Positions 1 to 48,054 of a DNA stretch of 48,054 nt are shown here, piece after piece. Each line of letters opens with the position of its first letter. Position 1 is the stretch's first letter. This DNA is from a virus (lineage: Duplodnaviria; Caudoviricetes). The DNA is taken from IMG/VR virus record IMGVR_UViG_3300031953_000029, positions 1-48,054 of that record; one strand, 5' to 3'. A program made the translations under genes and the position numbers. A model generated the notes under the pieces. The model saw only the letters and a program-made list of their open reading frames with translations. It ran no database searches and was not told where the DNA came from.

Positions 1-127
1 CGCAGAACCGGAATACGCGTAGAATACTGCAAGCGGTGACAGCCCGGAGAGACGGGTCCACTAATTCGCCCGATGGGGCGTACGAGCAGCCACAAACCCA
101 CGGTTCGAGTCCGTGCTTTGGGTCAAG
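1..127. repeat. Terminal exact direct repeat (copy 1); circular-assembly overlap
   Basis: 1-127 is identical to 47928-48054; 127 is a common assembler k-mer length. Confidence 0.95.
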
Positions 128-260
128 GGAAGACCGGTGGCCCGCAACCTACGGTAAATTGGTGACATCCGGAGAGACGGAAATCAGCTAGCCCTACGAT
201 TCGCAGCGGTGCGTATGGAATGCCGCTCAGAAATGGGACCGGGTTCCTAACGGGCGGCAC
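1..260 (+). ncRNA. 3' part of putative large structured ncRNA (continues from ~47630 across the origin)
   Basis: No credible ORF; repeated GGTGACA(G)(T/C)CCGGAGAGACGG modules at 35-56 and 161-180; T-arm hairpin at 99-115; several GNRA-type loops. Confidence 0.6.
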
Positions 261-263
261 TAG

Positions 264-292
264 TTGACACCTTCCCACCTTGCGGCTAGTAT
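264..292 (+). promoter_or_regulatory. Sigma70-like promoter of the head operon (near-leaderless)
   Basis: TTGACA-N17-TAGTAT with ATG at 301 and no SD. Confidence 0.65.
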
Positions 293-8287: not shown

Positions 8288-8525
8288 TCTCCTCAGCCAA
8301 ATCGTAAAACGTACCGTCCCATTGTTCCCCGTTCTGTGGGTGGTTCTCGTGTCGGGTCATTAGGATTTTGGCGCACCGTTCGCGCTCGGCTAGGATAGCT
8401 CGGGCCATACCAAGGTGCTGGACCATTGAGAACGGGCTGATTTCGTACTGCTTGCGAACTAGGGGGTGAAGCGCCTCAAACGCGGTGTCCCATATATCCT
8501 GCGGAATGTCCTCTGGTCTAGTCAC
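8238..8525 (-). CDS. Hypothetical protein (RP..P.D.W...AERERC family)
   Basis: MTRPEDIPQDIW...AILAERERCAKI; coupled operon. Confidence 0.65.
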   Translation of the reverse strand: MTRPEDIPQDIWDTAFEALHPLVRKQYEISPFSMVQHLGMARAILAERERCAKILMTRHENHPQNGEQWDGTFYDLAEEIMGQFPRAVARPRATY

Positions 8526-8704
8526 ACCTTCACCCTATAGCGCACAATATCACGCCCCTTGTCCGCCCACTTCCATTCCTTCCGATCCCACAGGTTATTG
8601 ACCCGTTCGATCCCTATTGATCCGTCCTCGCGCTCAAACTCCACCAACTCTTCCGGGTGGGCGTGTTCGGGCCAAGACTCGCCGTCGTGTTCATGCCACA
8701 TCAC
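8522..8704 (-). CDS. Micro-domain paralog 2
   Basis: WHEHDG..WP...VEFE..DG...DIVRYR. Confidence 0.65.
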   Translation of the reverse strand: MMWHEHDGESWPEHAHPEELVEFEREDGSIGIERVNNLWDRKEWKWADKGRDIVRYRVKV

Positions 8705-8880
8705 AGCCCCAACTCCTTAGCGATAGCGCACCGTAGCACATGCTCAATGCTGTTATAGTCTCGCCCCAACTGATCGAGGTAATATGTCCCGTGGCTATCC
8801 CACCCGCCATGATCGGAACTTGACGAGCGTTTACGATACCACTGTTCGTGGGTCGTGATTGGTCCGAGTGGGGCAGTCAT
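8701..8880 (-). CDS. Small hypothetical protein (59 aa, not in ORF track)
   Basis: MTAPLGPITTHEQWY...AIAKELGL; start and stop overlap both neighbours. Confidence 0.6.
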   Translation of the reverse strand: MTAPLGPITTHEQWYRKRSSSSDHGGWDSHGTYYLDQLGRDYNSIEHVLRCAIAKELGL

Positions 8881-9077
8881 TTCGTCACCACACGATAATG
8901 AGTGATGTCCAGAGGGTAAACCGGATCATCATGAACCCAATTAGATTGCCAGAATTCCACCGTTGCTCCCCATTCGCCTTTATCGGTGATCCCGTTTGCA
9001 AACTTGACTTCGACTCGCGTATCCATTGGCAAGTCCGGGTAGCGTTTGCCATGGTGTTCGATCCATTCTTCAGTCAT
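8877..9077 (-). CDS. Micro-domain paralog 3
   Basis: WIEHHG..YP...TRVEVKFANG...DITHYR; AGGAG SD. Confidence 0.7.
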   Translation of the reverse strand: MTEEWIEHHGKRYPDLPMDTRVEVKFANGITDKGEWGATVEFWQSNWVHDDPVYPLDITHYRVVTK

Positions 9078-9093
9078 GTCCGTCTCCTGTACC

Positions 9094-9140
9094 TGACCCA
9101 CCTGTCATAACTTGCTACAGAGACCATTGTCAACTATTAT
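9094..9140. promoter_or_regulatory. Overlapping opposed promoters with operator
   Basis: Operator 9094-9107; leftward TTGACA 9133-9128; rightward TTGCTA-N17-TATTAT 9112-9140. Confidence 0.65.
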
Positions 9141-23123: not shown

Positions 23124-23286
23124 CGGCCCCCTCGTGGCTCCCTGACCCGTAGGCACCAAGTCGTTCGTTATTAAACCAAAGGATAGATAGGTCACAGTAG
23201 TTTCGTACGCATGTATAGGTCCCACGGTCGGTAATGGCAGTGAGGATTTCCAGAACCGGCTTTCTCGTCCACTCTAGCATTGTCAT
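23098..23286 (-). CDS. Hypothetical protein
   Basis: ATGA-coupled last gene of a minus-strand cassette. Confidence 0.45.
   Translation of the reverse strand: MTMLEWTRKPVLEILTAITDRGTYTCVRNYCDLSILWFNNERLGAYGSGSHEGAARPPFSFR
23109..23132. terminator. Hairpin between convergent genes
   Basis: GGGGGCC-tagc-GGCCCCC; same design as 38225-38242. Confidence 0.6.
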
Positions 23287-23468
23287 CGCTCTATCCACTC
23301 ACCGTTCTGGTCAATCTGCAAGCGCTGACCATCGAGAAATACTTTGTAACGATCCTTTGCGTAGTATGCACAATATCAAGCCACGACATATCTAATAGAC
23401 TCATATGATACGGATATTTCCATAGTCTTATCTGTAGCGTCTCTATTGGTGAAAGTCAGTCTGTGCAT
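23283..23468 (-). pseudogene. Small gene interrupted by in-frame TGA
   Basis: MHRLTF...YVVA*YCAYYAKDRYKVFLDG...; GGAGG SD; TGA at 23378-23376; frame continues to a coupled stop. Confidence 0.55.
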
Positions 23469-23545
23469 TGCTCATCCTCCACATTACCCACGCAAGCACC
23501 ATTGGGCTCGATACGGCCAGTACGATTAGAGCGGTCAGGTCGTGG

Positions 23546-23785
23546 TCAATTGGCATTTCGCACCGTCCACTTGTGGGGTTTGCGTGGTCCCTTTGGGTGC
23601 CCTACGTTCAGCCGATTGTGCAGAGCGGCCCATAGTGCCTTGCGGCGGCATACGTATCGCACCCGGTCGTCAAAATAGGCGTAGGGTGCCATGACTCGGT
23701 TTAGTTCAGTTAGTCCAAACACTTGTCCCGCTTGTTCGGTTAGCTCAGATAGCTTGCGCTGCGATACGTAACGTTTACGGCTCAC
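23546..23785 (-). CDS. Small basic hypothetical protein
   Basis: AAGGAG SD; downstream of promoter at 23841. Confidence 0.6.
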   Translation of the reverse strand: MSRKRYVSQRKLSELTEQAGQVFGLTELNRVMAPYAYFDDRVRYVCRRKALWAALHNRLNVGHPKGPRKPHKWTVRNAN

Positions 23786-23812
23786 TTCGGTTCTCCTTGG
23801 TTCAATACGGGC

Positions 23813-23841
23813 AGACTAACCCAAGCTGACTAGAGCGTCAA
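23813..23841 (-). promoter_or_regulatory. Leftward promoter with operator
   Basis: TTGACG-N17-TAGTCT; operator 23827-23840. Confidence 0.7.
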
Positions 23842-38234: not shown

Positions 38235-38248
38235 TGGCCCCCTTCTTT
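38225..38248 (+). terminator. Rho-independent terminator
   Basis: GGGGGCC-tagt-GGCCCCC-TTCTTT. Confidence 0.75.
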
Positions 38249-38468
38249 ATGCTGCGGTCATCGCGTACTTTACAGCATCTTCACGGAACTTGCGGTTGAA
38301 CATCTTGGCGAAGGTAGCGTCGAATCCGCTTACCTCTGCTGCGCATTCACAGACTGCGAGAGAAACGTCCTGATACTTGAAGGCCCAACCGGAAGCACCG
38401 CTCTTGGCAATCGCAGTGAGGTTAGCGATCATGGTTTCGACTTCGCTCTGGAACTGTTCGTAGGTCAT
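38247..38468 (-). CDS. Hypothetical protein (stand-alone cassette)
   Basis: Own promoter/operator (38510-38524) and conserved 24-bp leader. Confidence 0.7.
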   Translation of the reverse strand: MTYEQFQSEVETMIANLTAIAKSGASGWAFKYQDVSLAVCECAAEVSGFDATFAKMFNRKFREDAVKYAMTAA

Positions 38469-38495
38469 TTGGTATCTCCGTTTCGTTGTTGACCC

Positions 38496-38524
38496 TTTGT
38501 CGCATGTCCTGACACGTATGTCAA
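38496..38524 (-). promoter_or_regulatory. Leftward promoter with operator
   Basis: TTGACA -35; operator 38510-38523; weak -10. Confidence 0.6.
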
Positions 38525-38589
38525 CACCTAATTGCAGCCGCCGTTAAATTTACTGAGCGCCCTTTATCGTCACTTACCGATGGAGTACC

Positions 38590-38840
38590 AACCGGACGGC
38601 GTACCGGACGATTCTATCGGACGTAATGATTTCAATGGGTTAGTTGGGTTTTGTCCGATTGTCCGATTGTCCGATACTTTTGCATATCCTATCCTGCGCA
38701 TATGCGCGCACATACACATGCACACACATACATTATATTATCATTATTTATAGGACAATAGGACGGATCGTATATAACCCCTTGCTGCATATGGCATTTT
38801 TGCCGTCCGACCGATAACGTCCGATAGATTCTACTGGACG
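38590..38840. repeat. Putative replication origin with iteron-like repeats and AT-rich core
   Basis: (TTGTCCGA)x3 at 38651-38674; further GTCCGA/GGAC copies in both orientations; AT-rich run ~38728-38776. Confidence 0.55.
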
Positions 38841-38877
38841 ACTTGCCCCCCGGCCCCCACGGCCCTATACTAGCCGC

Positions 38878-46501: not shown

Positions 46502-47230
46502 ATGCCTAAAGATACGATATGCTCAATTGACGGCTGTGGCAAGCGAGCTAAAGGGCGCGGCTGGTGCGCTGCCCATTGGTGGCGTTGGAAGAACCACGGC
46601 GACCCACTGGTCTTGAAACCAAAGGCGGTTAAGTCTGACTTTTGCAATGTGGAGGGCTGCCAAAATCCACCGAGTGGCAAGAAGGGGATGTGCAACGCCC
46701 ACTATTTGCGTCAGTACCGCCACGGTGACGTACATCACACAGAACGCGCGGCTAATGGGACTATTCAAAAATGGTTCTTCGATCATATGAGCTACGACGG
46801 GGAACAATGCCTCACGTGGCCATTTACTGTAGGTCATGATGGACGAGGCAGGATCGCAGTCGGTGAGTTTAGACAAGCCCATCGATACATGTGCTTCCTC
46901 TTAAATGGACCTGCGCCCTCCACTATACATGAAGCGGCCCATTCATGCGGAAAGGGCCATGAAGCCTGCGTACACCCAAAGCACCTTCGCTGGGCAACGC
47001 CAGTAGAGAACGCAGCGGATCGTGAAATTCATGGTACTCAGGCAAGAGGTGAAAAGCACCACTCTTCTAAACTTACCCGGGACCAAGTAGACCTGATCAG
47101 GGATATGCGGTATTCTGGTCTAGCCAACGGGGAAATTGGTGCCCTATTTGGGGTTCATGCCGAAACAGTAGGCGACATCTACAGAGGTATCACATGGCAA
47201 CCGGCTCCAAACGTCACTCGGACCGACTGA
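46502..47230 (+). CDS. Free-standing HNH homing endonuclease
   Basis: Two C...GC...G.C..H...HGD repeats; H.CG....CV.P.HL.W.T..EN nuclease core; C-terminal HTH. Confidence 0.85.
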   Translation: MPKDTICSIDGCGKRAKGRGWCAAHWWRWKNHGDPLVLKPKAVKSDFCNVEGCQNPPSGKKGMCNAHYLRQYRHGDVHHTERAANGTIQKWFFDHMSYDGEQCLTWPFTVGHDGRGRIAVGEFRQAHRYMCFLLNGPAPSTIHEAAHSCGKGHEACVHPKHLRWATPVENAADREIHGTQARGEKHHSSKLTRDQVDLIRDMRYSGLANGEIGALFGVHAETVGDIYRGITWQPAPNVTRTD

Positions 47231-47589
47231 AGCGTATGGCGCAGCGTACACCCCAAGCAGTAGCGCGCGCCCTATACGCTGCTGGTCAAATTATCGAGCT
47301 TGATTGGGAGAAGTCTATCACAGCCGGGTCCATTTCTGGCAAGGGACATATCCCATCCCTGCCCGGTCAACCCTCGAACTCTGACACTCACCACTTGGAC
47401 TCCAATATTGAAACCCGCATCGGCGGTCCGGGACTAGTCGTGGTGGAATCCCTTGCGGAATATGCTGCCGCCCAGGAGTTCGGCACCTCAAAAATTGCGC
47501 CTAGACCAGCAGCTAGACCCGCTACGGAACGCAACCGCAAGAAGGTCGTTCAGATGGTTGGTGACGCGGTGAACATTACGATCAGATAG
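47194..47589 (+). CDS. Neck/tail-completion protein (HK97 gp10-like)
   Basis: S.PG.P...DT..L..NI and YA...EFGTS...PRP..RPA motifs. Confidence 0.75.
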   Translation: MATGSKRHSDRLKRMAQRTPQAVARALYAAGQIIELDWEKSITAGSISGKGHIPSLPGQPSNSDTHHLDSNIETRIGGPGLVVVESLAEYAAAQEFGTSKIAPRPAARPATERNRKKVVQMVGDAVNITIR

Positions 47590-47593
47590 GGTG

Positions 47594-47623
47594 TTGACAC
47601 GCCCGACAACCTGTGGCCATATG
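47594..47623 (+). promoter_or_regulatory. Promoter upstream of putative ncRNA locus
   Basis: TTGACA-N18-CATATG with no credible downstream CDS. Confidence 0.55.
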
Positions 47624-47629
47624 GCGTCA

Positions 47630-48054
47630 ACGGGGTGGGCATGCAAGCTTCCCCAAGGGGCCGTAACCTCCAAAGTCCGGCTCCTACCTAACAAGACCCG
47701 ACACGCTGATCGTAGCGCACCCGTCGGGTTACTAATACGCAGCGCCCTCCCTGTGGCGCGCGTTTCCCCGACCGGGCAAGTGCCCCTCCTCGCTTAGTCC
47801 GGTCGGGGCTTTCAAATTTGCCGAAGGGCCGATGTGTTGGCCTTCATTCAGTAGCGCCCCGTCCGTGAAATGCGGCAAAGAGACGGGAACTAGTTTCATA
47901 GCGAGAAAACGGTAACGAGACCAGCAACGCAGAACCGGAATACGCGTAGAATACTGCAAGCGGTGACAGCCCGGAGAGACGGGTCCACTAATTCGCCCGA
48001 TGGGGCGTACGAGCAGCCACAAACCCACGGTTCGAGTCCGTGCTTTGGGTCAAG
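47630..48054 (+). ncRNA. 5' part of putative large structured ncRNA
   Basis: Dense stems (47695-47730, 47738-47762, 47766-47808, 47823-47845; CAGTA/TACTG and CCCGTC/GACGGG pairings); GNRA and CCTCC loops. Confidence 0.6.
47928..48054. repeat. Terminal exact direct repeat (copy 2)
   Basis: Identical to 1-127. Confidence 0.95.

Follow-up and report, generated by a model that had tools for sequence, protein, structure and literature searches.

A modular phage RNA cassette ahead of the head genes contains two covarying modules uncatalogued in Rfam, one of them with a permuted tRNA-elbow domain

The ORF-poor interval that precedes the head genes of this phage raises the question of whether it specifies one large structured RNA, a set of small RNAs, or a protein. 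The window, i.e., the whole stretch of DNA analyzed (48,054 nt), represents a complete phage genome carrying 127-nt direct repeats at its termini (47928-48054 = 1-127), and the interval runs across the join; the parts of the interval described below and its two boundaries lie on the plus strand. Portal, head morphogenesis, HNH, and neck genes are found before the interval and the genes for the head protease and the major capsid protein after it, in the genome of a long-tailed phage. Named relatives were few among the 120 capsid homologues listed and belonged to Rhizobium, Agrobacterium, and Novosphingobium (57-58% identity), which makes an alphaproteobacterial host likely. The best-matching public sequencing runs are brine metagenomes, six of them being possible sources of this DNA, and no RNA run was listed among the matching runs. 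The initial annotation had described a locus spanning the origin. In agreement with this proposal, the joined interval was recovered unbroken in a separate contig (L001; 668/668 nt identical), and contigs from two public runs (X7 and X10) spanned the join with zero differences. The interval is genuine and is not an artefact of the terminal repeat. The HNH endonuclease gene (46502-47230), located between the head morphogenesis and neck genes, is likely mobile, since it is 37% identical in the close relative L002 and was not detected at the same place in the relative L003.

The interval is bounded upstream by a neck or tail-completion gene (47194..47589; phrog_5, E 3.7e-11) and downstream by the predicted head-operon promoter (264..292), which the promoter scan called (10 of 12 positions). 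The ATG of the protease gene, at 301, is located 8 nt past the -10 box of this promoter and is not preceded by a Shine-Dalgarno sequence (264-301), as also found in L002 and L003; the head-operon mRNA is therefore likely to be leaderless. Hairpins at 186..263 (z = -0.64) trail the interval; no intrinsic terminator was called in this segment and no homologue of it was found. The interval had been described as the largest gene-free stretch of the genome. It is indeed ORF-poor, but the 617-nt gap ranks fourth at a threshold of 100 codons: the three larger gaps (824, 714, and 643 nt; 8288-9111, 23124-23837, and 38235-38877), stretches of 640-820 nt that likewise lack ORFs of at least 100 codons, contain ORFs of 60-97 codons. 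The predicted fold of the whole interval was more stable than those of shuffled sequences (z = -2.72; 0/100 shuffles as good). All of the stems previously named are present at the positions given, two copies of the repeated module were counted as compared to 0 in 200 shuffles, and a third AGAGACGG is present at 47879. GNRA words are enriched (32 in 558 nt versus a shuffled mean of 20.8, with 15/2000 shuffles as high); these are words, not demonstrated tetraloops. Comparison of the whole window to Rfam 15 revealed nothing at gathering thresholds, and the proposed cmscan search of the rejoined interval returned no match above threshold, the best being Poribacteria-1 with 17.9 bits versus a cut-off of 74.2. 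ARAGORN detected 0 tRNA or tmRNA genes in the window.

Comparison of 50 head-protease loci revealed interval-like sequences only in L001 (the same phage) and in two relatives, L002 and L003 (protein identity of 89% and 61%, respectively), and the whole interval was kept in a single one of the 50, L001, which is this phage itself. In L002 and L003, the promoter and a 5' module, referred to as unit 0, are kept up to ~47814. Further downstream, the slot of L003 contains another hairpin set and a tRNA-Leu(TAA), and that of L002 contains small ORFs together with a fold in which the 5' arm of unit 1 (see below) recurs and the 3' end differs. In more distant relatives whose gene order is the same, the contents of the slot are unrelated. 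Since its contents differ among relatives, the slot takes exchangeable cargo, tRNA included. Thus, the interval is a patchwork cassette of modules rather than one conserved ornate RNA. The suggestion of an RNA array, possibly representing a new family, was borne out by covariation in two modules that have no Rfam match, although the interval as a whole is not conserved among homologous intervals. In L003 (3785-3975), two other hairpin modules and the tRNA-Leu(TAA) directly precede the head promoter.

The 5' part of the cassette begins with a putative promoter (47594..47622) composed of TTGACA, a 17-nt spacing, and a weak -10 box, the transcription start being predicted near 47630. This promoter had been proposed in the initial annotation; it was missed by the scan owing to the weakness of the -10 box, yet TTGACA is found at the same place in L002 and L003, and transcription from 47594 is highly probable. 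Both promoters (47592-47630 and 264-301) contain TTGAC followed ~30 nt further by a (G/C)CAA word; at 47594, the two words form a near-perfect inverted repeat, which is kept in L002 and could be an operator or a hairpin. According to alignment and hairpin z scores, unit 0 (47630..47812) is kept by both close relatives and ends with a strong hairpin (47766-47808) followed by a short U tract (z = -5.87 for 47738-47820). One compensatory change, from C-G to A-U, was observed in this last hairpin in L002. Another hairpin (47695-47730) represents an insertion with no counterpart in L002 or L003. A pattern scan for unit 0 identified 3 loci, all originating from this phage, L002, and L003. The loop of the terminal hairpin is reminiscent of the L3 word of HDV; an HDV-like reading was rejected, as no P3 helix is possible and, owing to the covarying pair, the stem continues past the position at which cleavage would take place. 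The C/U-rich loop (47783-47790) is complementary to a Shine-Dalgarno sequence. Since the strong hairpin displays this loop, unit 0 could act on its own as an sRNA that base pairs through an anti-Shine-Dalgarno loop, a proposal that we regard as somewhat unlikely. The Cuckoo/CcsR sRNAs of Alphaproteobacteria (RF02791) are similar in exposing a C/U-rich hairpin loop complementary to a Shine-Dalgarno sequence, and the likely alphaproteobacterial host matches their setting. In contrast to these sRNAs, the loop of unit 0 occurs as a single copy and not as a CCUCCUCCC repeat, and no Rfam match was obtained for unit 0 at E values of up to 10.

Unit 1 (47849..47986) is separated from unit 0 by an AU-rich spacer with a 5' hairpin (47814..47845). 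It comprises a closing stem (47849-47856/47943-47956), an arm, a pseudoknot pair, a GACA linker, and a GAGAGA hairpin. The closing stem resembles the kink-turn of helix 23 of the 16S rRNA. In the pseudoknot, the loop ACCG (47934-47937) pairs with CGGU (47961-47964), and the GACA linker and GAGAGA hairpin follow. The terminal repeat duplicates the 3' part of the unit at 1-59. As a single sequence, unit 1 has an unremarkable fold (z = -1.08). Two pattern scans for homologues retrieved this phage and L002 only, 5 further matches being due to chance, and it is the 5' domain that the two phages have in common. The variant of L002 (3838-3990), with the same 5' arm and a different 3' end, has a loop able to form 6 bp with the loop of a hairpin located downstream (z = -3.08). 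The arm of unit 1 (47858-47887) displays an apical UGAAA T-loop word and an AGAGA bulge on its 3' side, and the counterpart in L002 has AUAGA, the comparison being limited to these two sequences. UGxRA and AGAGA are the consensus words of the T-loops of the T-box elbow reader (PMC7583486). In this respect, the arm is similar to the interdigitated double T-loop found in T-box stem I, in RNase P, and in the L1 stalk (PMC7583486, PMC4810234). A T-box-like elbow reader is a lead suggested by these words, and it stays a lead because only one relative is available. Ahead of unit 1, a GNCGAAG word (47821-47827), as found in the Ro-binding motif of YrlA, is partly kept in L002; ~0.3 such words are expected by chance in an interval of this size.

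Units 1 and 2 share a 3' core consisting of a pseudoknot helix, a GAC(A) linker, and a hairpin with a GARAGA loop. An exact pattern designed for the repeated module retrieved at least 119 loci, and ~310 stretches are estimated to be present in IMG/VR. The RNA bodies located upstream of the core are of dozens of kinds, unrelated to one another. Both core pairings were scored at positions that the search pattern leaves free. In a first set of 77 non-redundant loci out of 122 matches listed, the free base closing the core hairpin paired in 76/77 (shuffled mean of 36, maximum of 49), some of the pairs being G-U, and an upstream ACCNN paired over at least 5 bp with NNGGU before the linker in 31/77 (control of 9.5, maximum of 18). 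A second scan, in which the linker was left free, retrieved at least 120 loci (~190 estimated) and 97 non-redundant matches, overlapping the first set in a few contigs. GAC was in register in 61 of the 97 and in a shifted register in 10, GGCA was present in 6, and the other 20 were mostly chance-like. In this set, the hairpin-closing pair was formed in 48/50 and the upstream helix in 21/49 (control of 6.3, maximum of 14). A helix that crosses the upstream pair and ends just before it was found in 23/47 sequences with a 40-nt window (control of 9.9, maximum of 18), was marginal with a 90-nt window, and was not significant without the position constraint (24/47 versus 18, maximum of 29). Since the crossing helix is present in 23/47, support for the pseudoknot topology extends to about half of the bodies. 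The core differs from the double T-loop in that its linker is UGAC(A) and never UGxRA. A double-T-loop reading of the core was rejected on this basis: with the linker left free, 61 of 62 matches starting with GA read GAC, and the single GAAT looks like chance.

The core was detected, unannotated, in Ralstonia phage GP4, Rhodobacter phage RcCWillis, and Planktothrix phage Pag-Yong1, and under a hypothetical ORF call in RHph_N2, the hosts of cultured phages with a core being Sinorhizobium, Rhizobium, Rhodobacter, Ralstonia, and cyanobacteria. It recurs in tandem within loci, as ~207 kb of core loci contained 13 further copies in relaxed form; head-region loci (~403 kb) contained zero relaxed copies besides the two of this phage. 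A tRNA or tmRNA gene was located within 600 nt of the core on the same strand in 12/53 loci and on the opposite strand in 0, as compared to 0/128 loci retrieved with chance patterns and 0/224 head-region windows, two controls that are not matched to accessory regions. No tRNA was nearby in the other loci (41/53). The base after the core was A in 77/105 and was followed by a G-poor spacer (16% versus 29% G). RNWUU words were weakly enriched behind the core (17/77 versus a background mean of 12%, maximum of 20%). Intrinsic terminators as a general feature behind the core were rejected (1/53, the same as controls), and CCA ends after the core were not clearly enriched (18/105 versus 8%, maximum of 18%). 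A relationship of the interval to the capsid genes had been suggested; the finding that the head operon has its own promoter (264) and that the genes neighboring the modules elsewhere are unrelated, no family being common among 123 flanking ORFs, lends it no support. L051, L055, L056, L060, L066, L097, L114, and L163 form a recurring family in which a long AT-rich hairpin precedes the core and the ACC/GGU helix is absent; a C4 antisense RNA is nearby in L056. Genes for Thoeris anti-defence (Tad2-like) proteins are found directly upstream of core-bearing RNAs in L088 (752-1138) and L095 (1510-2016). A viral contig (L084:715-1222) contains, in this order, a permuted tmRNA, a tRNA-like element with a long insert, and a core-capped unit, and L120 has core-capped units on both strands.

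Unit 2 (82-181) follows an AU-rich spacer with a small 5' hairpin (61..80, also present at 47988-48007), and starts similar to this spacer and hairpin were found in L271, L188, and L202. Unit 2 matches an intergenic stretch of Sinorhizobium phage phiM9 (79% identity, E 3e-14), a cultured T4-like phage in which the unit is alone between two genes (KP881232, 142,736-142,837) and is unannotated. At least 16 distinct sequences were assembled: 12 from one pattern scan, in which 14 of 21 loci were true, and two from each of two further scans. One of the sequences is also present in a genome titled Brucella tritici. Among the matches listed in metagenome and genome scans, 3/120 and 1/121 loci were true, the rest being mostly due to chance. 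Unit 2 was not found in the plasmids searched or in 120 further genomes from the family of G002, and its 3' part, searched for on its own, was not found in the E. coli genomes searched. The 16 sequences are related (68-98% identical), so the counts reported for them are not independent events.

The core of unit 2 (142..181) contains a hairpin (143-145/152-154) whose loop ACC (147-149) pairs with GGU (161-163), followed by GACA and the GAGAGA hairpin (168-181). RNAalifold, unprompted, returned this loop-to-tail pair (columns 90-103) in 16/16 sequences, 9 of them by double change, together with four of the helices. With the structure named, 93.8% of the cells were paired versus 80.0% in shuffled alignments, which related sequences can beat, and 24-38% in slid controls. 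Double changes were observed in 13/24 pairs. The terminal hairpin had a low score (68.8%) because of register shifts in the alignment. An alternative pairing of the 5' flank with the strand before GACA was dropped in favor of the pseudoknot, which is paired in 16/16. Like unit 1, unit 2 on its own has an unremarkable single-sequence fold (z = -0.54).

Alignment of the 16 sequences revealed that the 5' domain of unit 2 (89..141) corresponds, position by position, to a tRNA opened at the anticodon loop (numbering assigned in this analysis, with the elbow contacts of PMC4810234). In order, the domain comprises a 5-bp stem equivalent to the anticodon stem (89-93, with its partner strand at 137-141), a 5-nt variable loop (94-98), and a T arm (99-115) with a 5-bp stem and a canonical T loop. 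The acceptor stem is replaced by a linker of 3-6 nt ending with U8-R9 (5 nt in this phage, between 99-115 and 121-135). The D arm (121-135) has a 4-bp stem closed by C13-G22 and a 7-nt loop with A14, G18, G19, and A21, and the domain ends with purine 26 and the partner strand. C13-G22, A14, G18, G19, A21, and U54-U55-C56-G57-A58 are present in 16/16 sequences, as are purines at positions 9 and 26; U8 is present in 15/16, and the variable loop always has 5 nt. A15 faces C48 in 16/16, unlike the usual 15-48 pair. The mapping was not produced by the search, since the 12 distinct sequences retrieved with a pattern located outside the tRNA-like domain all have the T and D arms. Unit 2 has no acceptor stem, anticodon, or tag reading frame; ARAGORN found 0 genes in it, and the Rfam tRNA model did not match over the unit. 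A tRNA gene was found on the same strand near 7 of the 15 other unit 2 loci and on the opposite strand near none, and in L208 unit 2 begins right after the 3' end of a tRNA. Another locus (L219:940-1085) contains a tRNA-like element with an unclosed acceptor side followed by a D-loop-like hairpin, and matches the unit 2 model weakly (23.8 bits).

YrlA provides a precedent for elbow mimicry (PMC4201824). Like YrlA, unit 2 has a tRNA-like domain with the T arm before the D arm, a variable region, and conserved elbow bases, and it is phage-borne. Unlike YrlA, in which an acceptor-stem hairpin separates the T and D arms, unit 2 has the 3-6-nt linker in 16/16 sequences and carries a pseudoknot core at its 3' end. 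The gene for YrlA adjoins that for Ro60, and the RNA contains a motif for Ro binding (PMC4201824), whereas the genome containing unit 2 has no TROVE gene: Ro60 was found in 0/1 own complete genome and in 0/5 other unit 2 records (5 of 15 searched, 2 of them near complete), in a search whose control was positive in 2/14 genomes. The stable RNAs of T4 (rnaC and rnaD) and T5 (RNAI, III, IV, 1, 2, 2H, and X) are similar to the cassette in forming 100-170-nt units among tRNAs or in place of them, and some carry T-arm words, as does unit 2; none of them has the core or matches the unit 2 model. No description of the core or of unit 2 motifs was found in the literature searched, including the parts of the supplements of PMC8040213 and PMC10690425 that were covered. 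The latter study, by Fremin and Kyrpides, reports 8,495 candidate RNAs from IMG/VR (PMC10690425), and it is quite possible that the modules are already listed in that catalogue. Both modules are uncatalogued in Rfam, and the interval is a real modular phage RNA cassette whose proposed functions are putative.

Overall, the best explanation for these features, which we put forward tentatively, would be a processed small-RNA cassette residing in a tRNA or accessory slot, protected at its 3' ends and carrying an elbow decoy. The cassette would be transcribed from its own putative promoter, and the modules are predicted to fold as separate RNAs rather than as one giant RNA. The transcript would be cut into separate small RNAs at the AU-rich spacers, on balance probably by a host RNase E-type enzyme. 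RNase E has the consensus RNWUU (PMC5222698) and cuts at such AU-rich sites in Salmonella and Rhodobacter (PMC5222698, PMC6238624). RNWUU words are found at 47814 and 47815, in the spacer preceding unit 1, and 0 such words were found in the spacer between units 1 and 2. The core of units 1 and 2 would shield the 3' ends of the RNAs, a role that we consider slightly less likely than not. Finally, the elbow of unit 2, devoid of acceptor stem and anticodon, would tie up host tRNA-binding proteins. Phage tRNAs reportedly counter tRNA-targeting defences, namely, PARIS and retrons. The elbow may act outward and lure, e.g., nucleases or sensors of tRNA-targeting defences, and not as an internal brace, a view to which we attach limited confidence. 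This step is argued by analogy, since neither a protein partner, a target, nor a phenotype was found. Many tRNA-cutting nucleases read the anticodon loop, and the absence of this loop from unit 2 counts against the decoy reading. It is also conceivable, albeit doubtful, that the ~45-nt core is a common functional head (catalytic, ligand binding, or nuclease blocking) mounted on dozens of unrelated phage small RNAs, one of which would be an elbow-only tRNA decoy.

Other explanations assign the interval to a different product or to a higher-order structure. The frame at 47591-47797 is open over 68 codons and might be the real product, the folds being incidental; since it has no match in PHROG or Pfam, is broken in both relatives (in L002 the frame shifts past codon ~33, and in L003 a stop codon occupies the start position), starts on the -35 box, and leaves units 1 and 2 uncovered, this is extremely improbable. 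The single ~560-nt ornate RNA of the initial annotation, likened to GOLLD, ROOL, and manA, draws on the low ORF content, the better-than-shuffled fold, the phage origin, and the presence of a tRNA in the slot of a relative. GOLLD, ROOL, and manA are phage-borne and structured, and GOLLD and ROOL are often near tRNAs (PMC12286853; bioRxiv 10.64898/2026.07.01.735769), but each of them has a single conserved fold represented in Rfam by a model, whereas the interval is a patchwork without an Rfam match. No relative keeps the whole interval, the two closest relatives retaining its 5' part only; the modules travel separately and occur singly elsewhere; covariation supports no long-range helix; and neither the core nor a unit 2 match is present in one true GOLLD locus (L472, 207.8 bits; n = 1). 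A single ornate RNA is thus improbable. The units could alternatively be the blocks of an RNA-only assembly, in which the elbow of unit 2 would offer a docking surface, the unit 1 arm would read it by forming an interdigitated double T-loop, and the core would provide an assembly contact, as in the cages of manA, ROOL, and GOLLD. The arm containing both T-box words, UGxRA and AGAGA, directly precedes the elbow mimic, and manA RNAs of less than 200 nt form 8- to 60-mers (bioRxiv 10.64898/2026.07.01.735769). Against assembly, the arm is known from two sequences, of which L002 has AUAGA and no unit 2, and unit 1 is missing beside unit 2 in the other 15 sequences. In addition, the order of UGAAA and AGAGA in the arm is the reverse of that in T-box stem I. 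We consider such an assembly quite unlikely.

The remaining alternatives concern the core itself, which could be a cis-acting leader for the genes behind it, either a put-like antiterminator or an enhancer of translation or stability. The put RNAs of HK022 (PMC9378689) have two adjacent helical elements, as found here, and both types of elements are sometimes promoter-proximal in phages. By eye, the core is promoter-proximal in GP4, RcCWillis, and Pag-Yong1, and the phiM9 copy is located just ahead of a ribosome-binding site. However, a Shine-Dalgarno sequence and an ORF were found within 60 nt downstream of the core in 10/55 loci, inside the control range of 1-11, and core loci, unlike put, were not enriched behind promoters (4 versus 2-4 of 53). 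No core or unit 2 match was detected in the whole HK022 genome (NC_002166), which contains putL and putR at unannotated coordinates. A terminator-like hairpin with a U tract directly follows unit 2 in 4/15 loci (by eye), and the head genes of this phage are served by their own promoter. A leader function has a similarly small probability. The core could instead be the center of a new self-cleaving ribozyme or of an aptamer, freeing the units or sensing a small molecule. Its invariant unpaired GAC linker and GARAGA loop set on a pseudoknot, its freely exchanged peripheral domains, and its tandem copies speak for this proposal, but no Rfam ribozyme or riboswitch matched the core, even below threshold, no Rfam family of any kind covered it in the 40 of 119 core loci scanned, no known ribozyme adjoined it in 20 loci, and the shared class of downstream genes required for a riboswitch was not found. 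A catalytic or ligand-binding center is likewise of low probability.

The processed small-RNA cassette that we favor bears on the role of the stable phage RNAs that are annotated in the tRNA clusters of T4 and T5. The locus offers two well-defined, covarying, and uncatalogued modules, and the core is present in hundreds of viral contigs. With the unannotated copy of phiM9, a laboratory host is available in which expression, processing, structure, and the phenotype of a knock-out can be tested. If the elbow-only tRNA mimic is real, it would mean that selection can act on the tRNA elbow independently of decoding and charging.
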